Assembly (NCBI GenBank): GCA_977020255.1
Contig: CDROCS010001071.1
Span: forward strand, 1,984,001-2,048,000
Source of the DNA: Obrimoposthia wandeli
Lineage: Eukaryota
Reading direction: 5' to 3'
Length of the DNA stretch: 64,000 nucleotides
The notes beneath the pieces were generated by a model. It searched no databases and was not told the origin of the DNA. It saw only the letters and a program-made list of their open reading frames with translations. Of this stretch, positions 1-56,499 are shown piece after piece. The position numbers and the translations under genes were made by a program. Each line of letters opens with the position of its first letter. Position 1 is the first letter of the stretch.

Positions 1-33
1 GAAGAAATAGTTGAGGAGGATATAATTGAAAAT

Positions 34-3000
34 ATGGCTCAACCAGGAGCTCCAGTAGATAATAATGCAGGAAATAATGTAGGAGACATGAATGCAGAAC
101 AATTGGCACTAGCCTTAAATGCGACGTTGAGACCCAACTTTTCAGGATCATTGCAGATTACAAAGTTTAAAGGAGATGAGGAAAGTATTTGTGACTTCCT
201 CGCAGAATATTCGAGTTGTGCAGATGTTCAAGGATGGAACGATAGAGAAAAATGTATCCGTGTGCAGGCACATTTGACCGGATTGGCACTTGAAGTGTAT
301 AAACATTTAACAGAAGCAGAACGTTTAGATTGGGCAACGTTGGAAAATGCTTTTATTGGAATATTGGTATTGGGAGATTTAGCAAAAGTGAATAAGCGAA
401 TCATGAGAGAACGGAAACAGAAACATGACGAAGGCGTGAATGAATACGCGTATGTTTTGAGAACCTTGGCCGCAAGAACGTACCCAAGAATAATAATGAG
501 AAATCAGGACGGTAACCCTGTAGCTCCAGAAGCACAAGTAGCGGAAAATAACCGGAACCAAAATGAAATGGCAGAAGTTTTGTTAGACATATTTAGAGGA
601 GGACTGAAAAAAGATATTAAAGTGTTATTAGCAGTATCAGACACGAATGATTTTGATAACGCCGTACGAAAGGCGAGAGAGATTGAGAAAAATATAAAAA
701 ATAACGCAGCAATGGCAATTTATGCAATGACCACAGGTGATGACGATAAGACAAAAGTATTCGTGAATAAAACAGAACCGAGTAATTTTCAGAATCGAAA
801 TTATGGACAAAATAAGTTTGAAAAAGGAGATGAATCCAGTAACGGAAACAGAGATAATTTCCGAAATAGGAATCGAGATGATTCGAGAAGTAGAAATAAT
901 AGTGAGTCTTGGAACAGGAATCGAGATGATTCAAGAGGTAGAAATAGTAATGATTCGTGGAATAGAAATAGAGATGATTCCAGGAATAGATTTAGTAGAG
1001 ATAATTCAGGAAATCGCCAACCTTGGAGAGGGGACGATAGGAATTACAACGCAAACAGAGGAGAGCGAAGTGACTCTCGATTTGGAAATAATACAGGAAG
1101 TAGGGACGGAAGATTCAATAATCGAGGAAGTGGTTTTGAATCGAATTTCCGAAGAAATTATTTTAGAGGACGCTATGACAATAGACAGAATAGTCGTCGA
1201 GTACAGTTCGAAGATGAACAAAATAAGATAGATATTCGAGGGAGAATAATGTGTTACACGTGTAAACAAATGGGTCACTATTCGAGAGATTGTACGAGAA
1301 GTAAAGAGTTCGGAACTAACAGATTTGGAAATAATAATTTCGGAAATAATAATTTTGGAAAAAATTATAGAGGATATAATTCACCTCCGCCATGGAATAG
1401 AGGTGGTGGATATACTCCACAGCCATGGAGACCGAATAACCAGTATACAGATAGACAACAGTCACCAGGTAGATACAATAACTATGCAGATAGACAGCAA
1501 GGAGCTGAGAGATACAATAATTACGTAGGACAGCAAGTAGCTGAGAGATATAATAATTCCGGTAGATATAATAATAATAATGTTGACAAGACAAATAGTC
1601 GTGAGAGTTCGCCGAAACCGAAAGGAAATTTTAGTTACGTAAATGATGACAGCGATAGGAATCGCGAGACCGAGCTTCGACGCGAAATTGATTTTGAAGA
1701 TAGTGATAGTAAATTTGAACGAATGTTAGGAATAATTAAAGATTCACCACATACAAAGATGGCGAATTCATCTACGTTGTCGAAACAAGAAAAAAGTCTA
1801 CACTCGAGAGAAGAGATAAATGATTTAATGAACCGAATACTAGAAGCGTATGAGACACCAATAGAGAAAACGTGTAACGCACAACCTATGACTGATCACA
1901 TAGAAGCAGCAAGAAATGCTACAAGTATGGAAAATTTAAAAAAGATAATTAGTGAAGCTAAGGAGACGTTGAATCAACCGTTAGATGAAACGAGTGAAGC
2001 TCCAGAAGTTTTGGCCAAATTGCAAACAATTAAAGTGCACAGATTGGAAGAAGTGCGAGCAGAATTGGTTAAACATAGTCATGATAACTTGGGTTACAAA
2101 GAAGTACCACGAGGATTATTGAAAGGATATGGTCGTTACGTACAGAGATCAAACCAAAATGGAACGATGAAAATTTCGCTTCGATTAATTTCCGGACAGA
2201 TTATACATGAAAAACTTAACGTGTATCAAACAATGAAAACTATTCGAAAAATGTTGGCCGAGAAACTTGAAATTGATGGAATGAACATGTTGTTCCATTA
2301 TAAAGGAAGATCACTAGATGACGAAGACGTACCAGTCGAGTGCGGATATCCAATAGGAAACGAATTAGAGGAAAAAATTGATGTCATTACTGTAGAACGT
2401 CAAGAGTTAGTAGATAATGAAGGATTAACGGAGATATTAAACTCCGCGTTAGAAATGATTAAAACGCCTATAGAAATTTTAGACAGTTCAAGCGAAAGCG
2501 GAGATAATGATGTAGCTGAAGCTTGGAACAAGACATCCACACCAGAACCGTACGTAGCTGAATTACAAGACGTGGAACTAGAAAATGAGTTGACGACTCC
2601 GTTGGTCGAAGTACCACCAGAACCAGAGATAATTCAAACCAGACAAGATGAAGTAACGGATATAGCTAACCAAGTGAGACAAAACGAAAACGTAACCCAA
2701 CTAGTAGGAGAAGACGAAATCTCCGAAATTATAGATTTAGATTCACCAATTTGGCATGCTGCATACAGAGATAGACAAGCAGAGCAGATGATGCGACAAA
2801 ACGAAGAGATTGGCCATGAAGAAGGACCAAGTCAAGAGATACAGTATAATGGTGAACCGTATGATCCAGGAGAGAATCAAACTGAGTATCAGTATTTTCG
2901 AAGAGGACCTGGAAGACCTAGAAAGGACGGAAGTATATTACGAAATGTTCTAACTGCACCACAAACTGATGAGGAGAGACATCTAAGCATTGGACAGTTA

Positions 3001-6000
3001 GCAGCGTCATTAGAGCAGTATAGTACGGAGCGAAATGAAGATATCAGAGGTGATATGAATTCGGAAGCTCCAAGTAGTAAAGATATACTTACGGGAATTC
3101 TCAGGCAAGTGAAGCCGAAGTTGTTCAAAATGTACAAAGATGAAACAACCGATATAACAGACAATTTGACTAAAGCAGTTAGATCACAAATGTCTGCAGT
3201 AAAGAGAATGACTGCGAATCATGTATACCATGCATCAATAGATAGATTTTATGACGGTGAAGTTTTAGCAAGATTATGTGGAAACCAGACTACAAATAAA
3301 AAGTTAATTACAGCAATCACATATCTATGTTTCCAATTGACGGAACGAACGAGCCAATCTCACGAAGTCAAACAAGGAATAAATGAAGCGATGTATTTGA
3401 TCGAGAATGTATTGCAGAGACGAATTGACGAAAACGGAGGTTGGGCAAAATTAAGTGACTACGCTAAAACCATTGTGGAAATGAACGAAGACGATGACAA
3501 ACAATGTCATGAGAACCGGCAGAGAGAAAATAAACAATACCGTCCGAAAGAAAGAAACAATCAACCAAATATGTCCACAACAATGATGATGATGATGTTA
3601 GTAATGTTCATGGGAATGCAACAGGCATCAGGGTTGATAGCATACGACTGTAGCATACCAAAAATGGGACAAAAGTATTCACTGCTTGACAGCGAAAACT
3701 GTCCAGAATCACAACCGTCAAAATTAGAAGTTAAAGGTGTTGAAAACTACTTTGTGTATCAGGATGTTGATAAGATACAAGTAGAATTGAAAGAATGTTC
3801 AGTCCATTCAAGTTATCACGAATTCTATTGTGGCCATAGAGGTTTTATGTCGGAAATCACATCTACCACACCGTACAAAGTACATAAGGTTTTTCCGAGA
3901 GATTGCGAAGACGCATTTCGAACAGGAACAATAGACAAGAATTACAAACCTGATGTAAAAGTTGGGGTGAGACGATACGAAACAGTCACGAGAGTAGGAC
4001 AACGATGGCCTGATGGATCTTGTGACGGAGGAACAAAAAACGTGCGTGGTACCAAAGTAACAGAGTTAGTAATGGACGTAACTTACAAAATCGAATTAAA
4101 AACATGGACCGCCAATTTTGATAAAAAGACACAACGAATGATGAAGTATCCGGAATGTAAAATGACAGATGCATCTTGTTTTACAGGTGAATCCACAATT
4201 GTGTATCACGTGAATCCGAAACAATGCTCTTTAGTATTTTTGAAAGAAATTAGTTTTAATAAAATAAAAGGGTTCCTGTATAATAAAGATGGAGAAGGGT
4301 TCCTGTATAATAAAGTTGGAGAAGGATTTCATAATGAAACAAGACCAATTCCTATGACGGCGACACCTACACTGTTAATGGCAACGTCAACAGAAGAAGG
4401 ATTGATATTTATTAAAAAGAGAAATAAAGCGCGATGCGGAATGACTGTTAGTACTACAAACTATCCTGGAATAGTTTTGTCCAGAGAATTAATAGCATTG
4501 GCAGAAACCAAGCTAAAACCTAGAGATATGCAGCTACACACGTATTTTAATAATAAAATTGATTTTTATTATCATAAAGGATTGATGCAAATGGAACAGT
4601 TATATCGGATGATGATCGAGAGAGATTGCCAGCTAAACAAAGAGATCGTAAGAACAAAGTTAGCATTAGCTATTACGAATCCAGACATGGTAGCACCATT
4701 ATTACCCCTGGATGAAGGAGTATTTGCTAAAACCATGGAAGAAGTATTGTATACTTACAAGTGTAATAAAGTAGAAGTACAGTTGAGAAAAACAGATCGA
4801 TGTACGAGTGAATTGGCCGTAACGCATAATTTAAAAGAACTCTTTGTTGAACCAATCACGAGAATGATACTTCCAAAAGACACTCCAACTAAAGAAATCA
4901 GCTGCTCTAATATAATGGCACCTGAATATCAGATGACGAATGATCTATGGATAACGCTACCTGACCGAAAGCCAACGAAAACTCCAGAGATGATAAAAAT
5001 GACAAATCTTAAAGGAAAAATGAAATTCGAAGCGGTAGAAAATATGGAGAACGCAGGTTTGTACAATGAAAAAGACTTAAAAGCGGCCTGGAACGAAATA
5101 ATGTTTCCAGTAAAAAGGGCCAGAGTACTTACGGAGATGGTACATCGAGCATTACCGCCAGGAGCTAGATATGCGAATTTTGATATGTTATTATCGCCAA
5201 GCCATTTCAAGGAAGCAGCACATCAGACACTTAGAAAGATGTGGGGGAAATTCCTTGTTTTAGGACAATTATTTTCGGGTATCATAGGTATTTATGTTAT
5301 AATTAAATTTGTGCAGGTAATTATAGCCCATATGTTGTCTACGTATAGTTTATACAGGATAACCGGAATCACCTGGCAACTTATAATTGGATGTTTTCCA
5401 TTTTTAGCAAAATATCTAATGCACCATCATCACGAGAACGAGTTGCGAGCCCTCAAGAAGGAGCAACATCAAACGAGAACCATGATGCGAAACCCAAGAA
5501 ACTATCGAGACGACAACAACGACGATAATGATAGTCCAGGAGAATATGCAAAGATACCAGGAAAACCAAAGATTCCGTTACCAGACAAGGAAGAAGTGGC
5601 GCTAAACCTATATCCAATGAAGGAACTAAAGGAAGAGAAGGAAAAGTTCAAGAGAGGCATTTTAATGATAAGATGGCCTAAAGTGAACTACAGTAAGATT
5701 CCAAAAGCAGAGGAAAAAGACAAAAAAGATAATTCAAGAAGAATTCTAAAGTCTAGGATATCCAATGAGAATCCAAATGCTCCACCACAAGTAGCAGTAA
5801 CACTGAACGGAAGAGAATATCTTGCCGAAGTCGATACTGGATCTGCAGTATCAGTACTGAGTAAAGAAATCTTGTCATCAAAAGAATTAAGAGAAGTATG
5901 TCCTAGAAAACAGACATTTGTTAACGTAAACGGTACAGATGTAGTGTCAGAAGGAACACTGAAATGTTCATTAAATATCGATGGAAGAGCATTGCAGTTA

Positions 6001-9000
6001 AATGCTAGAATATTCACAGATTGCGGTAGTCCAGTCATGATTGGGATGGACGTAATACGGATGTTTGAAGGAATAATTATATTACCAAACAACAAGAGTT
6101 TTAAGAACGACAGTTCAGTGAGAGAGATAAAAATGTTGAGAGGACCTATAGTCGAAAAGGAAAAATACACTATGTTCCGTATGGGAAATCCGTACCAAGA
6201 TAAGAAACAGGAAGCGCTAGTAAAGTCGATACTTCACTACAAAGATGTAAACTCCGGACCACAAGCTATGACGAGGAGGAAAATAACATATGTGAATCTG
6301 TCAGAAAAAGATCCCTTGAGAATCGAGAAAAATAGACGAAAATCATTAGAACTGTACTATTCAAAAGAAATGGCACGTAAAATGGCAAGATCAGGTTTAC
6401 AAATGTTAAACGCGACAAGTAGTTATGGTCATGAGGAAGTAGTACGATGCGTATGGTGTAGAGTAAAGTTTAGAAAGTGGGAGAAGAATGAAAACCCAAT
6501 GAAACGTCATAAAAGAGATGCACCAAATTGCCCATTTCTTTTGAAACTGAAAACTTCAAAAATACCAGAAATCCAAATGGGAAAAGCACCCGATTTCGAT
6601 TACAGTGACGAGATTCCAAAAGGAGAATCAACTCTAATAGTAGGCAGAGTAATAACAAATAGCCGAATTGAAGACATATTCGAAGTTATGCGAGAAGTGA
6701 ACGAATGTGCCGAACAATATCGAGAAGTAACTTTCGAAGATCCAAGACTTAAAAGATTGGCAAAAAAGGGACTTTTTGCTATAAAAAAGGATGGTAAAGA
6801 CGTAATTAAATGCCACAAGTGTAAAAAAGAACGAATTATCGACAGATATACTCTTGAGTTACCTAAGAAAACTTTACATCACGAATTTTGTGAATTTTGT
6901 ATTTTTAAAAACAAAATAAAGCAAAAAGAACAGAAAACAGAATGTATAATCGAATACCAAATCACACGGAAAGAGATTTTGGCTCAACAAGACACACCGG
7001 TAGTGTCATTCGTGAGAAGACTATATCCAAAAGAAGCAGAAAGAATCAGAGATTTGGTAGAATTAAAAATAAAAACTACACGAAACGGATACGGATCGAT
7101 TTTTGAATTACTAAAAGATAAAGATGATAGTACAATTGAAACAAAAGAGAAAGAGTACATAAACGAACTAGAATACGTACTGGAAGATCCGGAATGTGCA
7201 GTTTGCATGGTCAACAAAATAGAAGTTGCCTTTTTACCATGCGGACATGTAAGAACATGTCGGAGATGTGCGAAGGAAATGGTATCATGTCCGATTTGTA
7301 GAAGGATAATATATCGACAAGTGAGAAATATTAGATTTCACTATCCAAACAAAGGAAGTGGACCGACAGAGTTTAATAATTCGATAAATACAATATACCA
7401 CATGGGAAATATAAATGGAGCACAGCGACCAGCAGCTATCATTAGAGTAAATAATTTAAGAGTAAAAGCCTTAATTGATACAGGTGCGGTAGCTTCGATA
7501 GTAAGTGAAGATTGTTTGACGGAGGAACAGAAACGAACAATGGCAGAACCAGATGAATTCTTGGTATCGGTCAATGGAGACCCTGTAAAAGTGACGGGAA
7601 TATTACCATGTACATTTATAATTGGATGTAATACGATCACTATACCAGTTAGAATCATGAAAAAATGTCCTGAACCTACAATTTTAGGAATGGATGTACT
7701 ATCACAACTCAAAGGGATAAGTATTGATTTACAAGATCCAAGATTGAAGGATAGTACATCAAACAGACAAATAAACCAAATTGATGTAATTATAGAAAAT
7801 CCTATAAAAATCGGTAAAAGATCACAATTTCTCATTCAAGGTCACACATTGTCAGAAGATAAAGGACCAGTTGTGTTCGAACCATCACGGGATTTCATAG
7901 AGAAATACGAATTACCAATTGTGATTACAGCATGTCTGATTGAAAACCACAAAATACCAGTCAGACTGATGAATACAACCAACAATGACATCCTGTTATA
8001 CAGAGGAATGAGGTTGGGAAAGATAGCACAGATGGAGAATCCCACTGTGTGTGCTATGAAACTCGATAAAGACACGAATGATTACGAAGAAATAGTAATC
8101 CACTCAGAAAGACTGACAACTAGAGAAAAGAAACCATTACTTGATCTAATACATAAATTTCCGAAAGTAATTGCAAAAAATCCGTATGACATAGGAGAAA
8201 CACCTGTAATAAAACACACAATACCGCTGACGGAAGACAAAGTAGTCAGAAGAAGACCATATCGAGTACCATTACAGTTACAAGATGAAGTAAAACGTCT
8301 GATTGAAGATATGTCTAAAACAGGAGTAATTAGACCGAGTTTTTCACCATTCTCAGCACCTGTAGTGTTAGTAAAAAAGAAGGATGGAAAAATGAGATTC
8401 TGTATAGACTTCAGAGAACTGAACAAGATCACAAGAAAAGATGTGTATCCATTACCTAGAATCGAAGAGATGCTCGATAAATTAGGTAATTCAGATTATT
8501 TTACGACATTGGATTTGCAGAGTGGATACTGGCAAATCGAGATAGAGGAAGAGAACAAACACAAAACAGCCTTTTCCTGCGGAGATGGACTATACGAATG
8601 CGAAAAAATGCCATTCGGACTGACAGGAGCTCCAGCAACATTTCAGCGTTGCATGAATTTTGTACTCGCATCGTGTGCAAACACGATGGTTTATATCGAT
8701 GACATAATAATATTTTCTAAAACGTTCGAAGAACATTTAAAAAATCTTGAAGTTGTATTTAAAAGACTGGAAAACGCTAAATTAAAAGTTAAACCTACAA
8801 AATGCGATTGGGCTAAAGAGCGAGTAACATTTTTAGGACATATAGTATCGAAAGAATGCATCCGACCTGATACAGCAAAGATCGAGAATGTAAAAGCGCA
8901 TTTAGCGCCAAAGACTGTTAAGGAAATACAGAGTTTTTTAGGTCTTGCGAACTATTATAGACGATTTGTTGTACATTTTTCGGATATAGCAACACCATTG

Positions 9001-10152
9001 AGAAAGTTGACGAGGAAAGATGAGAAGTTCATATGGGGAAAGGAAGCACAACAAGCGTTCGAACATTTAAAAGAAAGACTGATAAAAGCACCAATATTAG
9101 CGTTTCCAGATATAAACCGACAATTCATACTCATGACAGATGCAAGTAACTATGCTGTAGGAGCAGTATTGGGACAAGAGGATGACGAAGGAAGAGAACA
9201 CGTCATCGCGTATGCGAGTAGAGGATTAAACAGAGCCGAAAGAGGATACTCTGTTATTGAAAAGGAATGTCTAGCCATAGTGTATTCATGTAGACAGTAC
9301 AGATACTACTTGCTAGGACAAAAAGTATTCCTGTATACAGATCACAAACCACTACAGTTCTTGTATAAACATAGAGATGAGATGAGTAGATTAAACAGAT
9401 GGTTTCTAAAATTGGCCGAATTTGACCTAGAAATCCGTTATAGAACCGGAAAGTCGAATGGCAACGCAGATTGTTTGTCGAGGTTGACAAATGTAGACGA
9501 GAAAGGAAACATAATTCCAGAAGAAGATGAAACCAACGACCAAAAAGGAGAAGCAAATCTACTAACGATTTTGCTGAAGACGGGTAAAATAGACAAAGAG
9601 ATCATCAAAGAACAGAAAGAAGATGAAGAATTGAGTCTAATAAAAGAACTGTTGGTGAAAGGAGATCTAAACGATGAAATGACGAAAAAATACTCGATAA
9701 AAGAAGGAATCTTGTATATTGTCAACAATGTCGGAAAGATAGTAGTAGTAATTCCGAAGTCATTGAAAACAGCAGTGATGATCCAGTATCACGATGGAAC
9801 ACTAGGAGGACATCTGTCAGGACGAAAGACAATAGCCAGAATCAAAGAGAAATACCATTGGGATGGTATGGAAGATGACATAAAACAATGGTGTAAACAA
9901 TGTAAAGTATGTTTAACCAGAAAAGACACCGGAACTCGTACTAAAGTTCCATTAAAACCGATGCCAGTTCCTTTGGCACCAATGGAATTCACAGCGATGG
10001 ATATATTGGGACCATTGAGAGAATCAAGTAAAGAAAACAAGTACGTCATAGTATTTACGGACTACATGACGAGATGGATAGAAGCATATCCCATGCAAAA
10101 CCAGAAGGCTGAAACAATAGCGCAGATCTTAGTGGAAGAGATAATATTTTGA
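34..10152 (+). CDS. Gag-Ubl-Bcl2-like-Env-PR-IAP-PR-RT-RH-IN polyprotein, 3372 aa, truncated in the integrase core by TGA
   Basis: Uninterrupted ORF with Gag core (~150-700), CX2CX4HX4C, two DTG proteases, YIDD RT, RNase H (TDASNYAVGAVL, TDHKPL) and integrase HHCC + DILGP. The frame is also open from base 1, so the true start may be upstream. Confidence 0.95.
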   Translation: MAQPGAPVDNNAGNNVGDMNAEQLALALNATLRPNFSGSLQITKFKGDEESICDFLAEYSSCADVQGWNDREKCIRVQAHLTGLALEVYKHLTEAERLDWATLENAFIGILVLGDLAKVNKRIMRERKQKHDEGVNEYAYVLRTLAARTYPRIIMRNQDGNPVAPEAQVAENNRNQNEMAEVLLDIFRGGLKKDIKVLLAVSDTNDFDNAVRKAREIEKNIKNNAAMAIYAMTTGDDDKTKVFVNKTEPSNFQNRNYGQNKFEKGDESSNGNRDNFRNRNRDDSRSRNNSESWNRNRDDSRGRNSNDSWNRNRDDSRNRFSRDNSGNRQPWRGDDRNYNANRGERSDSRFGNNTGSRDGRFNNRGSGFESNFRRNYFRGRYDNRQNSRRVQFEDEQNKIDIRGRIMCYTCKQMGHYSRDCTRSKEFGTNRFGNNNFGNNNFGKNYRGYNSPPPWNRGGGYTPQPWRPNNQYTDRQQSPGRYNNYADRQQGAERYNNYVGQQVAERYNNSGRYNNNNVDKTNSRESSPKPKGNFSYVNDDSDRNRETELRREIDFEDSDSKFERMLGIIKDSPHTKMANSSTLSKQEKSLHSREEINDLMNRILEAYETPIEKTCNAQPMTDHIEAARNATSMENLKKIISEAKETLNQPLDETSEAPEVLAKLQTIKVHRLEEVRAELVKHSHDNLGYKEVPRGLLKGYGRYVQRSNQNGTMKISLRLISGQIIHEKLNVYQTMKTIRKMLAEKLEIDGMNMLFHYKGRSLDDEDVPVECGYPIGNELEEKIDVITVERQELVDNEGLTEILNSALEMIKTPIEILDSSSESGDNDVAEAWNKTSTPEPYVAELQDVELENELTTPLVEVPPEPEIIQTRQDEVTDIANQVRQNENVTQLVGEDEISEIIDLDSPIWHAAYRDRQAEQMMRQNEEIGHEEGPSQEIQYNGEPYDPGENQTEYQYFRRGPGRPRKDGSILRNVLTAPQTDEERHLSIGQLAASLEQYSTERNEDIRGDMNSEAPSSKDILTGILRQVKPKLFKMYKDETTDITDNLTKAVRSQMSAVKRMTANHVYHASIDRFYDGEVLARLCGNQTTNKKLITAITYLCFQLTERTSQSHEVKQGINEAMYLIENVLQRRIDENGGWAKLSDYAKTIVEMNEDDDKQCHENRQRENKQYRPKERNNQPNMSTTMMMMMLVMFMGMQQASGLIAYDCSIPKMGQKYSLLDSENCPESQPSKLEVKGVENYFVYQDVDKIQVELKECSVHSSYHEFYCGHRGFMSEITSTTPYKVHKVFPRDCEDAFRTGTIDKNYKPDVKVGVRRYETVTRVGQRWPDGSCDGGTKNVRGTKVTELVMDVTYKIELKTWTANFDKKTQRMMKYPECKMTDASCFTGESTIVYHVNPKQCSLVFLKEISFNKIKGFLYNKDGEGFLYNKVGEGFHNETRPIPMTATPTLLMATSTEEGLIFIKKRNKARCGMTVSTTNYPGIVLSRELIALAETKLKPRDMQLHTYFNNKIDFYYHKGLMQMEQLYRMMIERDCQLNKEIVRTKLALAITNPDMVAPLLPLDEGVFAKTMEEVLYTYKCNKVEVQLRKTDRCTSELAVTHNLKELFVEPITRMILPKDTPTKEISCSNIMAPEYQMTNDLWITLPDRKPTKTPEMIKMTNLKGKMKFEAVENMENAGLYNEKDLKAAWNEIMFPVKRARVLTEMVHRALPPGARYANFDMLLSPSHFKEAAHQTLRKMWGKFLVLGQLFSGIIGIYVIIKFVQVIIAHMLSTYSLYRITGITWQLIIGCFPFLAKYLMHHHHENELRALKKEQHQTRTMMRNPRNYRDDNNDDNDSPGEYAKIPGKPKIPLPDKEEVALNLYPMKELKEEKEKFKRGILMIRWPKVNYSKIPKAEEKDKKDNSRRILKSRISNENPNAPPQVAVTLNGREYLAEVDTGSAVSVLSKEILSSKELREVCPRKQTFVNVNGTDVVSEGTLKCSLNIDGRALQLNARIFTDCGSPVMIGMDVIRMFEGIIILPNNKSFKNDSSVREIKMLRGPIVEKEKYTMFRMGNPYQDKKQEALVKSILHYKDVNSGPQAMTRRKITYVNLSEKDPLRIEKNRRKSLELYYSKEMARKMARSGLQMLNATSSYGHEEVVRCVWCRVKFRKWEKNENPMKRHKRDAPNCPFLLKLKTSKIPEIQMGKAPDFDYSDEIPKGESTLIVGRVITNSRIEDIFEVMREVNECAEQYREVTFEDPRLKRLAKKGLFAIKKDGKDVIKCHKCKKERIIDRYTLELPKKTLHHEFCEFCIFKNKIKQKEQKTECIIEYQITRKEILAQQDTPVVSFVRRLYPKEAERIRDLVELKIKTTRNGYGSIFELLKDKDDSTIETKEKEYINELEYVLEDPECAVCMVNKIEVAFLPCGHVRTCRRCAKEMVSCPICRRIIYRQVRNIRFHYPNKGSGPTEFNNSINTIYHMGNINGAQRPAAIIRVNNLRVKALIDTGAVASIVSEDCLTEEQKRTMAEPDEFLVSVNGDPVKVTGILPCTFIIGCNTITIPVRIMKKCPEPTILGMDVLSQLKGISIDLQDPRLKDSTSNRQINQIDVIIENPIKIGKRSQFLIQGHTLSEDKGPVVFEPSRDFIEKYELPIVITACLIENHKIPVRLMNTTNNDILLYRGMRLGKIAQMENPTVCAMKLDKDTNDYEEIVIHSERLTTREKKPLLDLIHKFPKVIAKNPYDIGETPVIKHTIPLTEDKVVRRRPYRVPLQLQDEVKRLIEDMSKTGVIRPSFSPFSAPVVLVKKKDGKMRFCIDFRELNKITRKDVYPLPRIEEMLDKLGNSDYFTTLDLQSGYWQIEIEEENKHKTAFSCGDGLYECEKMPFGLTGAPATFQRCMNFVLASCANTMVYIDDIIIFSKTFEEHLKNLEVVFKRLENAKLKVKPTKCDWAKERVTFLGHIVSKECIRPDTAKIENVKAHLAPKTVKEIQSFLGLANYYRRFVVHFSDIATPLRKLTRKDEKFIWGKEAQQAFEHLKERLIKAPILAFPDINRQFILMTDASNYAVGAVLGQEDDEGREHVIAYASRGLNRAERGYSVIEKECLAIVYSCRQYRYYLLGQKVFLYTDHKPLQFLYKHRDEMSRLNRWFLKLAEFDLEIRYRTGKSNGNADCLSRLTNVDEKGNIIPEEDETNDQKGEANLLTILLKTGKIDKEIIKEQKEDEELSLIKELLVKGDLNDEMTKKYSIKEGILYIVNNVGKIVVVIPKSLKTAVMIQYHDGTLGGHLSGRKTIARIKEKYHWDGMEDDIKQWCKQCKVCLTRKDTGTRTKVPLKPMPVPLAPMEFTAMDILGPLRESSKENKYVIVFTDYMTRWIEAYPMQNQKAETIAQILVEEIIF
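1252..1293 (+). other. Gag CCHC zinc knuckle (CYTCKQMGHYSRDC)
   Basis: Exact CX2CX4HX4C motif inside an R/N/G-rich region. Confidence 0.93.
2167..2400 (+). other. Ubiquitin/SUMO-like (beta-grasp) domain in polyprotein
   Basis: MKISLRLISGQII...TMKTIRKMLAEKLEI...LFHYKGRSLDD resembles ubiquitin MQIFVKTLTGKTI...TIENVKAKIQDKEGI...LIFAGKQLED; no terminal GG. Confidence 0.7.
2899..2925 (+). other. AT-hook motif RRGPGRPRK
   Basis: GRP core flanked by basic residues. Confidence 0.6.
3073..3480 (+). other. Divergent Bcl-2-like domain
   Basis: BH2-like RRIDENGGWAKLSDY (cf. WIQDNGGWDAF), preceded at the expected spacing by a BH1-position hydrophobic helix (TTNKKLITAITYLCFQL); NWGR not conserved. Confidence 0.5.
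3571..5420 (+). other. Envelope glycoprotein, chuvirus/gB-like class III fusion protein type, with internal signal peptide and C-terminal TM
   Basis: Signal peptide MMMMMLVMFMGMQQASG|LIAYDC and a Cys-rich ectodomain. Motifs YFNNKIDF..., DCQLNKEI..TKLALAITNPD, EVLYTYKCNKVEV.LR.T.RCTSELAV, LFVEPITRMIL and GLY resemble chuvirus glycoproteins. TM at ~5251-5337. Confidence 0.8.
5782..6063 (+). other. Retropepsin aspartic protease 1
   Basis: LAEVDTGSAVSVL (DTG at 5833) and C-terminal MIGMDVI. Confidence 0.88.
6325..7302 (+). other. IAP module: BIR (6325-6540), degenerate BIR (~6712-6900), C3HC4 RING (7195-7302)
   Basis: R..S...MARSG...VRCVWCRVKFRKWEKNENPMKRHKRDAPNCPFL is a canonical BIR with CxxC..H..C. 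RING CAVC..AFLPCGHVRTCRRCA...CPICR is IAP-type. Confidence 0.9.
7438..7710 (+). other. Retropepsin aspartic protease 2 (canonical pol position)
   Basis: VKALIDTGAVASIV (DTG at 7477) and ILGMDVL; followed by the usual gypsy PR-RT linker. Confidence 0.92.
8200..9490 (+). other. Reverse transcriptase and RNase H
   Basis: SPFSAPVVLVKKKDG.MRFCIDFRELN, LDLQSGYWQ, MPFGL.GAPATFQR, YIDD (8692-8703), FLGH, TDAS, EKECLAI, TDHKPL. Confidence 0.97.
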
Positions 10153-10720
10153 TACGGAGTACCTAGAAAGTTATTAACGGATCAAGGTAAGAACTTCACT
10201 GGAGAAGTAATCAAAGCAGTATCGAAGATATTCGGAATCATGAAGTTACAAACTTCACCATATCACCCACAAACCGATGGTCTAGTAGAAAGGTTTAATA
10301 AAACTTTATGTATGATGGTACAATCCTATTGCTCAGACAAGCAAGAGGATTGGGATAAATATTAGAACAATATGCCAATGATCTGGAGTGGACCGAACCA
10401 ACATCTCAGTATCTAGAAACTGAACAATACATTGTCGTTATGAAAGAAAGATTGCAAGATGCTTGGACTAAAGCAGGATTGAAACTGAAATTCAATCAAG
10501 AAGGTTACAAGGAACAATATGACAAAAAGGCAAAACCACATGAATTTAGAGTCGGAGACCAAGTGATGATATTTTATCCAGTCATCGAACCAGGTCTATC
10601 GTTTAAACTTCATAGACCATACAAAGGACCATACAAGGTGATACAGACAACCTCAACAAATTTGAAAGTAATCAACGAGGAGAACCGGAACAAAGAACCA
10701 ATGATTGTACATGCAAATCG
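9780..10720 (+). pseudogene. Integrase, disrupted (TGA at 10150-10152; deletion/frameshift at ~10362)
   Basis: HHCC finger and DILGP are followed by a TGA, then in frame YGVPRKLLTDQGKNF...SPYHPQTDGLVERFNKTL. The usual 'PYVLFAYRT...TPF' segment is missing, and the frame resumes shifted with a GPY/F motif (KLHRPYKGPYKV). Confidence 0.9.
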
Positions 10721-12041
10721 ATGTAAATTAGTACCAAATAAAGATAACACGTCACGATACGAGTTAAGATCACAGAAATTGAAGCCGAATACCAATACCA
10801 TTAAACTTACACGAATGGTAAGTGATCGAAACTACATAAATATGATGACAAGTGGTAGCGAGAGAAAACCAGTGAGAATTGGTATGCTCAGAATGAAGCA
10901 CCAAGAGGAAAAAGAAGTAATCCGACACATCGCACCACAAGAGATATTGGAAGAAGACGAAGAGATAATAGTTGTTTTCGAAAGAACACAACCAACAGAT
11001 GTGGCGAAAGAAGTCATTGTGAAAGATGCACTGACAAACGAATTTCTATGCGAACTTAGAGTGTCATACTACGACGGAAATACATTAGTCGCAGAACTAC
11101 ATCAAAACTCCAATGTGTTTACGACTGAGAAAGTGATCATCGAAATCACATTGACACCAAACATAGTTGCATGGCAGAACTATGACAGTACTGAAGCAGG
11201 ACTAGCATGTCAGGAAGAAAAAGAACCGGCCGGTGGTCACATACTGCATGGTACACCAAAAAGACTCAAACAAGAATACCACGATGTAATAATGGTATTA
11301 CGTAATTCACATGGGAAAAGAGACATAATGAGAGTTCATTTAATCGACGCTGACACTGAAAAGATAATCTGTCAGATGGACACCAAATACTTTGACGGAA
11401 AGACCATTGTATGTAATATACCGGAATCTCACCAATTAAACACAGATCAAACGGAAGTATCTGTAAGGTTGAGCGTAATAGAAGGATTTCATTCGCCAAC
11501 CCAACCGGAAGTAACAAACAATGAAATCATTAAAGCAACGGCAGAGTTACGCATTGACAGCGGATACCGGAAGTGGGAAGCTAAAAATAAACCACAAAGA
11601 ATCAATATGATCCGAGAACAAGTGACAACCTCAATTCAACCAAAATATCATGCTGAAATAGTATCAACCGCACCAAGTGTGATTACATCGATAAACGACG
11701 AAATTATAATTTTACTAAAAAATCGATGGCCGTCATCAACCGAGATACGAGTCAATTTAATTAATTATGCGAAAACACCCATATCTAAGCTGAATGTCAC
11801 CTATTTCGATGGATTGTCCATCATGGGTAAATTGGAAACAATTGTCATGTGCTACGGAGCACAGTTCCAAGTTGAGATACTTAAAGATAGTGTAATACCG
11901 TATCCAATTCACAGATACGCAGGACCAGTCAATCCAATTATTCTAACCCCTTCATTAATTTCAGTTCAGACAGACATACCAGAATTCCCTTCGAACGAGT
12001 CTAGTCAAGACAGCGAACCTGAAAGTAGCGATCCAGAATAA
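10440..12041 (+). CDS. Integrase C-terminus (GPY/F) plus three ~65-aa repeats of an unknown domain; frameshifted continuation of the polyprotein
   Basis: Frame open from 10362; FRVGDQV...KGPYKV; repeats share Y(Y/F)DGx(T/S)(L/I). Confidence 0.8.
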   Translation: MKERLQDAWTKAGLKLKFNQEGYKEQYDKKAKPHEFRVGDQVMIFYPVIEPGLSFKLHRPYKGPYKVIQTTSTNLKVINEENRNKEPMIVHANRCKLVPNKDNTSRYELRSQKLKPNTNTIKLTRMVSDRNYINMMTSGSERKPVRIGMLRMKHQEEKEVIRHIAPQEILEEDEEIIVVFERTQPTDVAKEVIVKDALTNEFLCELRVSYYDGNTLVAELHQNSNVFTTEKVIIEITLTPNIVAWQNYDSTEAGLACQEEKEPAGGHILHGTPKRLKQEYHDVIMVLRNSHGKRDIMRVHLIDADTEKIICQMDTKYFDGKTIVCNIPESHQLNTDQTEVSVRLSVIEGFHSPTQPEVTNNEIIKATAELRIDSGYRKWEAKNKPQRINMIREQVTTSIQPKYHAEIVSTAPSVITSINDEIIILLKNRWPSSTEIRVNLINYAKTPISKLNVTYFDGLSIMGKLETIVMCYGAQFQVEILKDSVIPYPIHRYAGPVNPIILTPSLISVQTDIPEFPSNESSQDSEPESSDPE

Positions 12042-13310
12042 AAGAATCCGAAGATAACATAATAGAGCGATTCGAAAAAACCATGGAGGTTGAATTCGCT
12101 AAAGAGAGCAGAAAAAGACGAAACATAGAATTCGTGAAACAGAATATACAAGAAAGACGAATCAAATCTGCAGAAGAGACCGAGTCGGAAGAGGAATCAA
12201 CAAAGGAACAGACATCAGAGACAAAGATGAATATATCTCCAGCAATACGAATGCTGAGAGGAAAGAAACTGGCGAAACTATCCAACATTGACGAACAAAT
12301 AAAGAAGAGATTAGAAAGACTAAAACTTTAAGAGTCAGAATTAATGCCACCAATGAGTGAGATCATTCCAGGTAAGTTATACCTCGGAAATGTGGAAGAT
12401 GCAACAGACGAAAAGAAACTGTTGGAACAAGGGATAACATACGTGATCAACGTTACAATGAATCACAAATCTTAATATCAGACGATCAGAGCCATGACAT
12501 TAAGAGTAAAAGACTCAATGGAGGCTAATCTTCTCGAATGGTTCGTAAAAACAAACGAGATACTTCACAGAGAACTCCAAAACCAAGGAAAAGTGTTGGT
12601 ACATTGTCAGAAAGGAATCTCCCGATCAGCAACCCTAGTATTAGCGTATCTAATAAAGACTAGACGAATGCAGGTACTAGAAGCGCTGAAATACCTGCAG
12701 GAAAGAAGAAGTATTGCAAACCCAAACCTTAATTTTTTGGGACAATTGTCAAATTACCAACTCCTGTTGCAAGAACAGAGACGGATGGACGACATCCCTG
12801 AGGATCCAAAGGAAAAGAATTTCCTCCAAGCACTATCGTTGACCGGATTATTCTTAGCCGGAGTCGATAAAATCACTCAGATAATGCCGAAAGTATTTTT
12901 ATGTTATCCAGGAGATATAGATACCGCTGGATTAAAGTTCCACAGTATCAACCGAGTAATTAATATTGTCGAAGTCGGAAATGAGATAATCAGTCTGTGT
13001 CAAAATACTGAAGATGACACAACTCGATACATACATGCTTCCAATCGAGAGATAAATGATGCACAACAACATCTGATGAAATTGACTCAAACCATTCAAG
13101 CCGAAGTCACAGAAGGAAACGGCGTTCTGATATATCAGAAAAAGGTACAATGTTAGCTCCTACCATAGGTGTATCCTTGTTGGTAGAGTACCATGATCAT
13201 ACACCAGAAGAAGCGATGGTTTATATCAAACAGAATAGACCAGACACGGAATTCAAACCGTTACTCGTTCGAGAAATAGAGAAGTACTCCGAAAAGAGGA
13301 AGCAACAACG
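12029..13310 (+). pseudogene. Charged linker plus tandem dual-specificity phosphatase domains (first with intact HCX5R, second degenerate)
   Basis: One frame from 12029 to 13156 with stops at 12329 and 12473: MSEIIPGKLYLGN..DA...GITYVINVT, VHCQKGISRSATLVLAYL, RSIANPNLNFLGQL. The second domain (ITQIMPKVFL...EEAMVYIKQNRP) crosses a frameshift at ~13140. Confidence 0.85.
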
Positions 13311-13794
13311 AGAAACAAATGAAGCTACAACAACAGTACCCAGCTATCAATACCAAAGATTGCTAGCACTAGGCTTGTTAAATTGTTTGATGCCGATAAC
13401 AGGAGCACAAGAGATAGGCTCCAACCACGGAAATAGTTCATGGTTCAAAGAAATCAACAACTACATCATACAGTACCATACACCGGCACTGATGATGCTA
13501 TTAGTGTTGTTAGGACTAATTGATGTGTGGGTCATCCGAAAATGTCTCCGATCTATGAGAACCGACAGTAAAAGATTTCAGTTTGTAAAGATGAAGAGAC
13601 CAACTGGACCAACGAACCAAGTACTTGTGTATCTAGACGAAAGGATTGAGGATAACATAGTGAATGAAGCGATATTCTATCCACAAAACAGAATACTGAA
13701 TCAATTCCGAATAGTTACGAAGCTGATCGACAGCGCACACTTGACCGAATATCAGCAACATTCGCCGGATGCAGGCGAAGAAAACGAATTGTAA
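13150..13794 (+). CDS. Polyprotein fragment: end of pseudo-phosphatase, signal peptide plus TM cassette
   Basis: LLALGLLNCLMPITGA|QE followed by TM ALMMLLVLLGLIDVWVI. Confidence 0.65.
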   Translation: MLAPTIGVSLLVEYHDHTPEEAMVYIKQNRPDTEFKPLLVREIEKYSEKRKQQRETNEATTTVPSYQYQRLLALGLLNCLMPITGAQEIGSNHGNSSWFKEINNYIIQYHTPALMMLLVLLGLIDVWVIRKCLRSMRTDSKRFQFVKMKRPTGPTNQVLVYLDERIEDNIVNEAIFYPQNRILNQFRIVTKLIDSAHLTEYQQHSPDAGEENEL

Positions 13795-13883
13795 AGGAAA
13801 TACAAAAAGATGCGGATACAAAAGGTCCGACGTATATATTCGACGGCGATGTCATCAAAACACGTGAGTATGGAAGTAAGAGA

Positions 13884-14267
13884 GTGATAATTGAAACGAT
13901 GGAAGGACATAAAACATGCTTGTCCGCCAAAAATGGATTCGGAAAGTTGACGATACAAGGTAAACAGGTACAGTTGATTATCGGAAAAACTGGAATCGAA
14001 GATATGTCAAAACAACGACAGACAACAAAACGACCTAACCAGAAACATATATTTCTCAAACGAATGATAATCAAAACCCTTTGCAAAAGGACAATCAAGG
14101 CCCTGTGCACCGTTGCACAAGGATTAATCTACGGAGTAGTAATTGGATTGGTACTACAAGCCATTCCAACCAGTAAAGCTGAATTGATGACACTATCCGA
14201 ATATAATTTACATTTGAGAAATCTAGACAACACCCTAGAAATAATCAAGACGTCCCACAGTATGTGA
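13884..14267 (+). CDS. Polyprotein fragment ending in a signal-peptide-like segment
   Basis: Frame open from ~13790; LIYGVVIGLVLQAIPTSKA|EL; overlaps the next ORF by a -1 shift. Confidence 0.55.
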   Translation: MIIETMEGHKTCLSAKNGFGKLTIQGKQVQLIIGKTGIEDMSKQRQTTKRPNQKHIFLKRMIIKTLCKRTIKALCTVAQGLIYGVVIGLVLQAIPTSKAELMTLSEYNLHLRNLDNTLEIIKTSHSM

Positions 14268-16060
14268 AAGGATGTCCACGACGAATGTGTATAGTCCCAG
14301 CGACCGAAATGAAAACACTTAATGGACATTATGGAGTTAGTGTTGTCACATGTGAAGATTACACATTTGGACAAACTAAAATAGTACTTCTCAGTGACAT
14401 GTCCAACCAAAGTGTACATAAATTTAAAATATTAACCATCAAGAGTAAAGGGATACCAGCAATACGTTATGGTATTCTAGAATTGGTTAATGCAATACTG
14501 GCATTGATCATAGGATTTATAATATTAATATTACTCATATTGTTTTGTTGTACAAAGATAGAGTTGAGATCAAAAAAGAAACGTCATGATCTCGCAAGAC
14601 AAACAGGTCAAATGAATTTACAAAAATTCAACACAAGTATACCAAGACCAGCATTCCTAAATGAACCAGCACCAGAGTACCAGCCAACAATATATGAACA
14701 TATCGAGGAAAGACCGTACTATATGAGTAACTTGAGTTGTTCCAGAGAAGTTCCTGAGATTCGGAACCGAACGATATTAGGAATCATGCTGATCATGCAA
14801 ATCACCACGACCGAGGCTGGTTATGAGATCATGATCAGTAAATGGAGACAAGATACGATACGTGCGTTATACATAGAAATCCCTCTATTAAAAACAAATC
14901 ACGTAGTAGACATTCACTTACAAACGTCAGCAACCGACAATGTCGATCAGAAATTGTATGTCATCCGACAGGTCAGAATAAAGATTGACCAACATACACC
15001 TTATTACCGACTGATATTATTCTATCATGAAAGGGTGTTATACCTACGGATAACGATATCAAAGAGGAAACGGATTATTCAAAGTATCCGAACAAAGTCA
15101 TTAATATTGCCTAGAGATGAGCGAATATGGAAAGTTGTCGACAGGATTATGATCACAGGTAGACGACGTAAAACCGTATGGAATTCCGTTAGAATATTCT
15201 TCAGATTGTTAGAAACTGACCAGGCAACAGTGGCGTGTCTCAATCCAGATGGTGGAATCAGATTCGAAATTCAAAACCAAATGTTAATACCACATTTTGA
15301 TGCAGAATGTCTATGTAACCGAATTCCCAGCAATGCTAGAGAGACCACTACCATAATCATGGTAATAACAGGTGAAATATTCTACATAACTCTAAGATAC
15401 CAGACACGTCGATTTCGTGGACTCGGTATAAGTATTAAACCCAGGAAAATTATTTCCGGAAAACCAATCAAGGTCATAAAAAAGGAAAAGGTGAAAGGAA
15501 GTAAACGTCATTCCAAAAAGCCAATCATAATCAAAAAGAAGGCAAAGGTAAACGGAAGTAAACGCCATTCCGAGAAGCCAAAAGTAGTCATAACAAAGGC
15601 AGAAGTGAAAGGAAAAGAGCTCAATCCCAGAAACCAAAGTACAAGTATTAAGAGGACAAGAGTGAAGGGAACGATCCCACTAGATCCCAAACATCATTTC
15701 CAATCTAAATTAATAATACCTGTTCCACCGGAAACAAAATATCCAAATCCGCGAGTTATTAGAAAATCGGACATAATACATGGAAACCGATCAACACCAA
15801 TGGAAATGTCATTCAAACCGACAAACAACAAAATGAAGTATGATTATCAATCATCAGACAGCGGAATAACAGCGGTCAATGCTCTAATTGGAATGGCAGT
15901 AGTGTCAACAGCAGTGGTCCTATTGACAGTCGTGTGCGTGAAAGGCAGTCAAGTATGTCCAAGAATACGACGAAAATGCGAAGGACTGCGATGCTGTAAC
16001 ACACCCACAATGGAGGAAGTGGAATTGCGACCCTTACCTCCGCCTCCCATCAAGACATGA
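14264..16060 (+). CDS. Polyprotein C-terminal part: TM, signal peptide, ectodomain with Lys-rich duplication, TM, Cys/Pro-rich tail
   Basis: 598-aa ORF with TM ILALIIGFIILILLILFCC, signal TILGIMLIMQITTTEA|GY and TM ALIGMAVVSTAVVLLTVVCV. A homologous relic lies at 56500-56815. Confidence 0.75.
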   Translation: MKGCPRRMCIVPATEMKTLNGHYGVSVVTCEDYTFGQTKIVLLSDMSNQSVHKFKILTIKSKGIPAIRYGILELVNAILALIIGFIILILLILFCCTKIELRSKKKRHDLARQTGQMNLQKFNTSIPRPAFLNEPAPEYQPTIYEHIEERPYYMSNLSCSREVPEIRNRTILGIMLIMQITTTEAGYEIMISKWRQDTIRALYIEIPLLKTNHVVDIHLQTSATDNVDQKLYVIRQVRIKIDQHTPYYRLILFYHERVLYLRITISKRKRIIQSIRTKSLILPRDERIWKVVDRIMITGRRRKTVWNSVRIFFRLLETDQATVACLNPDGGIRFEIQNQMLIPHFDAECLCNRIPSNARETTTIIMVITGEIFYITLRYQTRRFRGLGISIKPRKIISGKPIKVIKKEKVKGSKRHSKKPIIIKKKAKVNGSKRHSEKPKVVITKAEVKGKELNPRNQSTSIKRTRVKGTIPLDPKHHFQSKLIIPVPPETKYPNPRVIRKSDIIHGNRSTPMEMSFKPTNNKMKYDYQSSDSGITAVNALIGMAVVSTAVVLLTVVCVKGSQVCPRIRRKCEGLRCCNTPTMEEVELRPLPPPPIKT

Positions 16061-16850: not shown

Positions 16851-17202
16851 CCGAAGGTAACTTTCTGACTTAAAACGTGACATCATGAACTACCCCTGTG
16901 TATCGCATACCGCGATAAATTAGCTACCATAATTGTAATCATAATTGTATAATCTTGTGAAACTGTAAAATGACCATTACCATTTTTATGTATGTTGTTT
17001 ATTTGAAATTGTAATTATTATACTGAAACAAAAGACAATTTTTATGCTTAGTATGAATGTGAAAAACATGCCTAAAATCAAGACAGAACTCGGTAGGATT
17101 AAAATACTAAGGTTTATGATATTAAAACTAAAATATTAAATTCGTAAATTAATATTAAAACCAAGTTGTACCCCGAATTAAAAAGAAGTAATTATTGAGC
17201 AG

Positions 17203-17715
17203 ATGATTTGCTCAATCTGCCTCGAGACCATCCGGCAAGCGTCGGCAAAACCTGCTGGGTGCCAGCACAAGTTTCACGAAGCTTGCCTATACAAGGGGGC
17301 CAGATCCCTAGCCCTATCCGCAGGGCACATCACTTGCCCAATGTGCCGCACCCCCTTCGCCGAATGGGCACTCAAGTGCCGAGGACGCCTGAAGGGCAAT
17401 CGCTCTCTGGCAACCTGCATTGGCGGACAGCACTGCAGATGCTTCGTGTGCCTGGCGCGCCGTCGAGACGTGCAAATTGGCATCCGCGAGCGATGGCGAT
17501 CTAGCCGCGACTGCCGCTCATGGCAGCAGGGCAGACGGTTTTGGATCGCAAACAATCGGCTGTACGGCTTTGACTTAATTGTCGAAAGCCCCCATCTGAG
17601 TCCTGCCCAGCAGTCGGCCTTATACACAGGGGACACTCCGTCCTTTCCGGACCTGCCCCTGGAGCATATAATGCTCTTCCTAGACGATCGGAACATGCCG
17701 GACATGGATGACTAA
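17203..17715 (+). CDS. RING-H2 protein 3 with C-terminal extension
   Basis: CSIC...CQHKFHEAC...CPMCR plus C......CRCFVC; GC-rich. Confidence 0.82.
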   Translation: MICSICLETIRQASAKPAGCQHKFHEACLYKGARSLALSAGHITCPMCRTPFAEWALKCRGRLKGNRSLATCIGGQHCRCFVCLARRRDVQIGIRERWRSSRDCRSWQQGRRFWIANNRLYGFDLIVESPHLSPAQQSALYTGDTPSFPDLPLEHIMLFLDDRNMPDMDD

Positions 17716-54882: not shown

Positions 54883-55812
54883 TTATTTGGTGGCCACAAT
54901 TTGGCGGATCTTTTCGAGTCCGAGTGAAGCCACATTCCATTTTTCTTCTCGTGTGATGTCAACGGCACCTAGTTGACTCAGTTGCTCATCTAAAACGAGT
55001 CGTGGTACGTACCACACGATGCTGGTGACCTTGGTTTGGTGTACGGCAGCGGCGGCCTTGCGCAGACAGTCGGACGATAGGATCTCAAGGTCACCCACAA
55101 AGTCGGAGAAAATGATCGTCATGCCATGCCAGGAGTTGTAGGTGACTTGAACCACGAACGAGCAATCTAGCTCTTTGTCACTGCTACTCTTCCTGGACAC
55201 ACTGACTAGTCAACTGAGACCCTTGGAATGTCTCTTGATAATGAAGAAGAGTTCGTTCACGGCAAGTTCCTCGTGTTGACTCTGGATCGGCTGCAGCAGC
55301 ACATTGAGCACCTCCGTCTCACCGAATACCTCAAACATGGTGACTCCCTCGCATGAGCTGCTGAGGTTCTCGAAGCCGAGCCCGACATAGAGCTTTTCGA
55401 GGCCGCAGATGGAGCTCTGGAAGACGAGCTTGATGAAACTGATGTTGTTGGACACCGTCATCTCATACATGTGGTGCATGAGCTTCTTGCCAAGTCCACG
55501 TCCACGCAGAATTGGGTCCACAAAGAAGTCGTCAATATAGTAGCCATAGCCGTGTCGGCTTGAGTACTCTTCCACGTACAGCAAGTAGCCCACAGCACGA
55601 CTTGTGCCAGTGTCGTTGTCACTGTCTTGTTCCATCAGCAGCAGACATTCAAATGCTTTGGCTCTAAACGCTTCCATCATGTCGACCTCGTTCATCAAGA
55701 AGTACTGGGTCATGCCCTGATGATACTTGACGAGATTGCTCGTGAAATTGAAAATTACACCGATGTCTTCCTCTTTCGCTGTAATAATTTGGTAACTGCT
55801 AGACAGGATCAT
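54883..55812 (-). CDS. Intronless SSAT/diamine-acetyltransferase-like tandem GNAT protein: 200 aa, or 309 aa via in-frame TGA at 55210-55212
   Basis: GNAT motif A YIDDFFVDPILRGRGLGKKLM. The downstream ORF is in the same frame and carries second-domain motifs (YNSWHG, GAVDITREEKW). GC-richer than flanks. Confidence 0.82.
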
Positions 55813-56499
55813 AATTGAGAATGTTTATTGATACTTTTTATACTTTTTATACTTTTGCTTACTTACTGAAGTTTTAAAAAAAATATTATTATGTCAAAAT
55901 CTATTGGTTAAATAATGTTGAAAATGAATAATTAATAATTTACAATTTAGCTTTTTAATAAAGTTATTTTCTTTAATATACTAAAAACAATGTTAACACG
56001 ATCCTTAACAAAAATGCTGAAATAGTTTTTATTGGAGAATTTTCTGAAAATATCTCGGTATTTTTGAATGTTGAAACACTGAAGAAATATGAAACATGTT
56101 TGTGTAGTTAATGGGCATATAAGCTTCAACAGGCGTTTGATAAGAAAGCTAATTTAGCAAATGACTAATTTAAGAACCTTGGAAAATATTCGATGATTTA
56201 TTCAGGCAAAGTTTCTCAAACGAATTGATGTAATTTTCTAGAACTCGTTGTTTGAATGACAATGAAGCAATACATGACTGGTGAAATTAAAATATATCGA
56301 AACAAAATTTGAGAAAGTAGAAGAACTATAACAGGATGGTTTCATTTCGGCCAGTAAATAAGCACTCAGTCTAGATCTAATGACTTTAAGTAAAACTCGA
56401 TGTACACAATGAACACCGTATTTAAAGATTATTCGGTGCTCAACATTTCATAACAAAGGACATCTTGCTAGACAAACTTGGACGATTTTTCAAGCCTTT

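Follow-up and report, generated by a model that had tools for sequence, protein, structure and literature searches.

Burro elements and Bcl-2-like modules

The closest described relatives of the element studied here are the Burro/GYPSM1 elements of dugesiid planarians, in which a Ubi2/SUMO-like motif precedes BCL-2, env homology lies between BCL2 and the protease, in frame between gag and pol, and a BIR domain is encoded, the BCL2-like motif being credited to Grohme 2018 (PMC6431247). The BIR-RING module of Burro1 (B-IAP, Dev Cell 2026, cited in PMC13465017) has been reported to shield stem cells from caspase-mediated death; as in our element, BIR and RING sit in the same polyprotein, and the report concerns this IAP module. 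The relevant parts of PMC8532177, PMC11410931 and PMC13159474 hold nothing further on the Bcl-2-like domain. The element at the start of our window (the whole stretch of DNA analysed, 64,000 nucleotides) is a new member of this described family; the first-pass annotation had regarded a retroelement-borne Bcl-2 as unusual, yet it is already in print for Burro at this same position, according to the Burro account in PMC6431247. That account, in its Burro passages, is silent on a signal peptide, BH1 loss, selection and sister families without the domain. The window element adds no new kind of system; what is added here is a structural ranking, evidence that the domain is under purifying selection, the observation that BH1 has been lost, and a natural control in the form of sister families lacking the domain.

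Flaviviruses offer a parallel in their anchored capsid, whose last segment is the signal peptide for the glycoprotein behind it and which is held at the ER. At the hepatitis C core-E1 junction (PMC5402940) the signal peptidase cut likewise leaves the product on the capsid side with the E1 signal at its end and held at the ER, as proposed here; in the window element, by contrast, the upstream product would be about 1,300 residues long, ending in a Bcl-2-like domain in two of four families, and release by signal peptide peptidase, shown for hepatitis C virus, is presumed. KsBcl-2, BHRF1, A179L, Mcl-1 and Bcl-xL share with the window domain a helical bundle that comes first in fold searches and a BH2 NGGW, whereas the window domain differs from viral and cellular Bcl-2 in lacking the BH1 NWGR, in showing no GD-type BH3, in being embedded in a polyprotein, and in having 46 residues between BH2 and a cleavable-type signal, with no terminal transmembrane helix.

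A Burro-type polyprotein with Env in frame

The window opens within a Burro-type giant Gypsy element of a dugesiid planarian, whose polyprotein frame continues 107 codons upstream of the window start and, in this copy, terminates within the integrase core. Pfam and structure work give the order Gag, ubiquitin-like (Ubl-like), Bcl-2-like, Env, protease, BIR, RING, protease, reverse transcriptase (RT), RNase H and integrase, with features as follows:

1..10152, + strand: Burro-type Gypsy polyprotein open-reading frame, 3383 aa, 5' end open
1252..1296, + strand: Gag CCHC zinc knuckle (PF00098, E 7e-5)
2179..2346, + strand: weak ubiquitin-like domain (PF00240, E 0.036, under cut-off)
2899..2925, + strand: RRGPGRPRK motif (from sequence)
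3073..3486, + strand: degenerate Bcl-2-like helical domain (Pfam, profile-profile, structural ranking, selection)
3292..3303, + strand: TNKK in place of BH1 NWGR (hhalign register against host Bcl-2)
3433..3444, + strand: NGGW, BH2 core (sequence, copy tallies)
3481..3570, + strand: charged linker, acidic then basic, constrained (sequence, selection)
3571..3633, + strand: Env internal signal sequence (PF24664 start; h-region 3583-3618; predicted cut after ASG)
3634..5523, + strand: Env, Monjiviricetes-type fusion glycoprotein (PF24664, E 2e-90, aa 1194-1841)
5269-5325, + strand: Env transmembrane helix (hydropathy; aa 1757-1775)
5791..6054, + strand: aspartic protease 1 (Pfam)
6364..6540, + strand: BIR domain (PF00653, E 4e-13; the scan counts a second, weaker stretch)
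7186..7311, + strand: RING finger after BIR (PF13920, E 5.5e-11)
7441..7707, + strand: aspartic protease 2 (Pfam)
8371..10137, + strand: RT, RNase H and the N-terminal part of integrase (Pfam)

RRGPGRPRK at 2899..2925 we take to be an AT-hook-like motif. A first look at the genome returned 10,912 candidates for the Bcl-2-like domain, the best 150 of which were scored and proved 99-100% identical.

Like Burro/GYPSM1, the element joins a BCL2-like domain, an in-frame Env and a protease in one gag-pol open-reading frame, encodes a Gag CCHC, BIR, RING, RT, RNase H and integrase, is present in thousands of copies, and has an Env related to mononegavirus fusion proteins (PMC6431247). The Ubi/SUMO-like domain before BCL2 in Burro has a weak candidate counterpart in the PF00240 match listed above. 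Points on which the element may differ from the published description are these: the MATH, ankyrin and dUTPase-like domains of Burro found no Pfam match in the window-element open-reading frames scanned (PMC6431247 used HHpred, and MATH varies by species); one CCHC was found; and accessory open-reading frames, including a dual-specificity phosphatase and a RING, lie downstream. Burro has long LTRs and a total length above 30 kb; here repeat-like sequence extends to ~18.2 kb of the window, in pieces to 20.7 kb, and comparison of the window with the 30 kb upstream gave no LTR match of more than 150 bases.

The accessory open-reading frames comprise the dual-specificity phosphatase 3' of integrase (12476-13156; PF00782, E 5e-30) and a RING-finger frame near the 3' part of the element, within many-copy repeated sequence (17182-17715); at 10359-12041 the integrase carries a long C-terminal extension of repeated beta-rich units, and several frames with predicted membrane segments occupy 13060-16060, both regions being without a clear Pfam match. 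BIR-RING is flanked by the two aspartic proteases (5791-6054 and 7441-7707), a pair which may mark a duplication that took place when the IAP module was captured. Near the Gag knuckles we observed RRVQF at 1195-1209 in the window family (family A), KTVQF at residue 483 of a family B frame (L119), and RGVRF in family D, all of which presumably fit the RVxF PP1-docking pattern. Outside the element we recognised, by eye, what we take to be hAT-like transposase remnants (39500-41095), a tetraspanin-like exon (22054-22461) and an acetyltransferase-like frame (55210-55824).

A degenerate Bcl-2-like domain ahead of Env

The stretch 3073-3633 lies in frame within the 3383-aa open-reading frame and reads SSKD...NGGW...MMMMMLVMFMGMQQASG, ending at ASG exactly where the first-pass annotation had placed it, with LIAYDC following at 3634; the distance from NGGW to the signal, there given as ~35 codons, measures 42 codons from the tryptophan to MSTT and 46 to the run of methionines. 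Bcl-2 (PF00452) is the top Pfam family for the window domain (E 0.04-0.07, 14-15 bits), and an older natural copy (L019) scores higher (E 0.0014, 19.6 bits, profile positions 7-100 of 100), both below the gathering score of 31.4 bits. Our domain alignment was made from 20 pieces, 8 from family A and 12 from family C, host sequences being excluded, and PF00452 matches 12 of these 20 natural pieces, with a best E of 0.00067. Compared profile to profile with 10 host Bcl-2 pieces, the element alignment scored 41.9 (P 89%, E 2e-6), while the highest of 100 column shuffles reached 16.0; truncating the element profile before BH2 lowered the score to 16.8 and left the register unchanged, and the sequence signal for Bcl-2 in this comparison appears to come mostly from BH2. 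The domain profile searched against the individual host pieces was weak, with 1 of 10 above all 741 scored shuffles, and it pointed to no particular host Bcl-2 gene as the donor. A PDB search with the domain profile placed the Bcl-2 family in 15 of 21 rows, all with E >1, and the window domain searched by sequence against PDB gave no significant match. Neither the protein databases nor the viral contigs yielded a relative of the domain; the single protein-database match, a CUB-like repeat protein, was dismissed as chance.

The copies bear out the prediction that NGGW would be conserved: of 60 other family A loci read in a single frame, 57 have it and the remaining three are out of frame at that point, though this retention is weak on its own because the copies are mostly 91-98% identical. 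Family C, an older sister family, carries the same domain at about 37% identity and with a canonical BH2; the first BH2 position is R in family A, and in family C it is W in 20 of 30 loci, with a stop in 6 more. The BH1 NWGR is missing from both families, replaced by TNKK in family A and mostly by SNKK in family C (hhalign register and tallies), while helix 5 positions are retained despite this loss and the register of helix 5, helix 6 and BH2 is correct against host Bcl-2 by hhalign and profile-profile comparison. Helix 1 of a family C copy (L146:2126-2153, minus strand) reads NSRELVTNI, which we take to resemble the BH4 motif of Bcl-xL.

AlphaFold prediction from the single window sequence was uninformative (pLDDT 40.5, generic helical-bundle matches only), and two ESM Atlas queries, with low recognition, returned bacterial matches only and no Bcl-2. 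An AlphaFold model built from the alignment of element sequences only has eight helices, at low confidence (pLDDT 49.9, pTM 0.33). Ranked against 48,161 chains, this low-confidence model placed the Bcl-2 family in all of the top 21 rows (Z 4.7-6.5, all <8; rmsd 3.7-5.6; 106-129 of 144 residues aligned), its best matches being the BH3-binding members Mcl-1, NRZ and KsBcl-2, at low scores; Foldseek gave Bcl-2-family entries in 40 of the 46 rows listed, every one with E >0.2, and a BFVD search put KSHV ORF16 first (E 0.35). For the Bcl-2 fold expected by the first-pass annotation from AlphaFold and Foldseek, the eight helices and the top rank of the Bcl-2 family are favourable but, at such low model confidence and match scores, short of decisive. 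The combined structural and sequence case consists of agreement among scores, none significant singly. Taken together, the profile-profile match, the structural ranking and the canonical BH2 of family C indicate that the domain is Bcl-2-like, as had been claimed, and by sequence and model it appears to be a real, selected, degenerate Bcl-2 homologue, not a canonical member, with TNKK at BH1 and a score below the Pfam cut-off.

One Bcl-2 gene of the host shares 81% identity with Bcl2-2 of Schmidtea mediterranea, which places the host among the dugesiid planarians. This orthologue (L004:1207-1839) is seemingly intronless and ends 16 residues past NGGW without a transmembrane tail; neither it nor the Schmidtea mediterranea orthologue has a hydrophobic tail, so a tail anchor is not a general requirement of planarian Bcl-2 proteins. 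We also located a Bak-like gene of the host, with a LAKIGDSI BH3 (L212:1445-1543).

Selection on the domain, linker and signal

Selection was measured in 86 family A loci together with the window, the loci being chosen by protein score or pattern and not randomly, and variants were counted as shared when seen in four or more copies. Singleton variants give an omega of 1.16, as expected for decay after insertion. For shared variants the Bcl-2-like domain has an omega of 0.08 (23 N/73 S), the Ubl-like part one of 0.12, Env 0.14-0.16 and the acidic spacer 0.26. The Bcl-2-like domain is maintained by strong purifying selection. Counts are small in the 30-codon linker between domain and signal (omega 0.06, 6 N/17 S) and in the signal itself (omega 0.22, 6 N/5 S). 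The linker of family C is similar to that of family A in length and charge pattern, which together with the constraint fits a conserved unit of domain plus anchor and favours the earlier proposal.

The Env signal and its sister families

The model of free viral glycoproteins, PF24664, begins on the hydrophobic stretch itself (aa 1194, profile positions 3-4), therefore the stretch belongs to Env, as the first-pass annotation had it. At this start the junction shows an h-region, small residues at -3/-1, then L/I-x-AYDC; this pattern, together with the matching junction of three further families, leads us to infer a cleavage site between ASG and LIAY. That the cut signal would remain on the upstream product, as was also proposed, would be expected from the predicted topology, with one clear Env transmembrane helix. 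The family A signal is short and weakly hydrophobic by its sequence, with an h-region of 12 residues and a best 19-residue hydropathy of 1.06 against 2.27 for the Env transmembrane helix, and would be poor as a membrane anchor; in six copies of families C and B the values are 1.04-2.11. Its methionine run (3583-3597), part of the h-region, is an (ATG)n microsatellite; of the 57 copies measured, two have 28 and 52 repeats and the remaining 55 have 2-9, five being the number in 38.

A pattern search for the start of Env gave 2,319 matches against 11 in the control and revealed divergent families. The Gag-signal-Env junction is common to families A, B, C and D, the Bcl-2-like domain being found only in A and C. 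In family B the order Gag-Env-protease-RT is the same (L119:4619-9998, L121:4941-9801), and the hydrophobic stretch precedes AYDC at every one of 33 family B loci and at 15 of 17 from family D. From the last knuckle to AYDC there are 176-182 aa, largely low-complexity, in 14 of 15 stop-free family B loci (one has 269), 166-167 aa in the 2 measurable family D loci, and 782 in the window. Searching 49 B/D loci with the domain profile gave no match (top score 5.2 bits, E 0.24), and the only one of the 50 loci in that search that did match is a family A copy. In a tree built from 18 Env rows, which has no outgroup and carries a long-branch warning, families A and C stand apart from B and D with 100/100 support; on this unrooted tree the domain maps to one side and the signal to both, a pattern that either gain or loss of the domain could produce.

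Families B and D (D: L183, L184, L190, L195-L211) are env-bearing Gypsy elements with Gag, signal and Env in frame and without the Bcl-2-like domain, compact Burro relatives which the Burro account of PMC6431247, in its relevant passages, does not mention. Family B carries an RNase T-type exonuclease frame downstream, and no BIR was found in the family B frames scanned.

An ER passenger, a tail anchor or a repurposed fold

In the reading that we favour, the domain is the BCL2-like module already described for giant Gypsy elements of the Burro type, the signal is native to Env, and the domain is probably a passenger to the ER. A ribosome would make about 1,300 cytosolic residues before reaching the internal signal, which would direct Env into the ER, where signal peptidase would cleave between ASG and LIAY; the single Env transmembrane helix would then bring Pol back to the cytosol, placing the Gag side in the cytosol, Env in the lumen and Pol in the cytosol. 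The signal would remain on the Gag-Ubl-Bcl-2-like precursor and tether it to the ER, in the manner of the E1 signal on hepatitis C core. Since families B and D show this junction while lacking the domain, the job of the signal would be Env import and probably Gag tethering, with the Bcl-2-like domain riding along, possibly to be released later by signal peptide peptidase or an element protease. The role that we find most likely for the domain, at about even confidence, is to promote host-cell survival with BIR-RING via a non-canonical groove.

A rival built on the first-pass annotation reads the same topology differently, with the Env signal co-opted as a tail anchor and upstream proteolysis freeing a domain-linker-signal vBcl-2 that binds the BH3 of host Bak/Bax. 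Wherever the domain occurs, in families A and C, no other folded unit separates it from the signal; the linker is under constraint (omega 0.06), the host has a Bak-like gene with a LAKIGDSI BH3, and the same polyprotein contains BIR-RING, reported as stem-cell protective in Burro1 (cited in PMC13465017). We nevertheless judge this reading unlikely: the junction recurs, signal included, in families B and D, which lack the domain; the hydrophobic core of the signal is brief and weak and contains an ATG run of variable length; BH1 NWGR has become TNKK or SNKK; and the host's own Bcl2-2 orthologue lacks a hydrophobic tail. A use of the Env signal as an anchor for Bcl-2 in particular is not supported, and on the sequences the anchoring is likely a by-product of topology, unspecific to the Bcl-2-like domain; a tail-anchor role that is true and needed would be one that overlaps the host-survival role. 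The idea of the signal as tail anchor was not found in our literature search, which did not extend to Dev Cell 2026 or Grohme 2018. A further reading, that Env is translated separately from its Met-rich signal, by splicing or internal initiation, so that the signal never anchors the upstream domain, takes support from the signal starting with Met (MSTT) and being Met-rich in families A and C, and from other env-bearing Gypsy elements that express Env from its own open-reading frame (PMC6431247). We think it improbable, since Gag, Env and Pol share one frame in families A and B, and since Pol lies downstream of Env full-length translation to Pol has to traverse the signal; moreover the 50 bases upstream of MSTT are purine-rich, with no pyrimidine tract. 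Four contig sets from one sample showed scattered low-depth joints only and are uninformative on splicing or expression.

The more substantial alternative to a survival role is that the fold no longer binds BH3 and has been repurposed to mediate interactions, be it in innate signalling, in autophagy or in the assembly of particles, for which the poxviral Bcl-2-like proteins A46, A52 and K7 are a precedent as Bcl-2 folds that do not bind BH3. It would account for the loss of BH1 in both families with helix 5 positions retained, for the loss of the first BH2 tryptophan in family A, and for selection that remains strong; the retained NGGW, the BH3 binders (Mcl-1, NRZ, KsBcl-2) among the top structural matches, at low scores, and the ability of certain viral Bcl-2 proteins to bind BH3 despite lacking BH1 weigh against it, and we hold it to be possible, though short of even. 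That NGGW arose by chance in an unrelated helical domain is very improbable and already largely refuted: the Pfam score under cut-off, the lack of a significant PDB sequence match, and the single-sequence model and Atlas searches without Bcl-2 would agree with it, whereas the structural ranking of the whole domain gives the Bcl-2 family, BH2 is canonical in family C, the register of helix 5, helix 6 and BH2 is correct, and a BCL2-like annotation is in print (PMC6431247).

Implications for planarian elements

A substantial share of planarian genomes is made up of Burro elements, whose IAP module has been reported to protect stem cells. Our analysis turns the label of a Bcl-2-like motif into a direct question, namely whether these elements carry a second anti-death module or a repurposed fold. 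It is conceivable, although we would not bet on it, that the A/C lineage put a captured Bcl-2 gene before a pre-existing Env signal, one helix thereby acting as import signal and as anchor of a processed vBcl-2 without BH1, which would bind host Bak either at the ER or on mitochondria. If true, the Bcl-2/BIR-RING polyprotein would block apoptosis at two levels, before and after the mitochondrial step.
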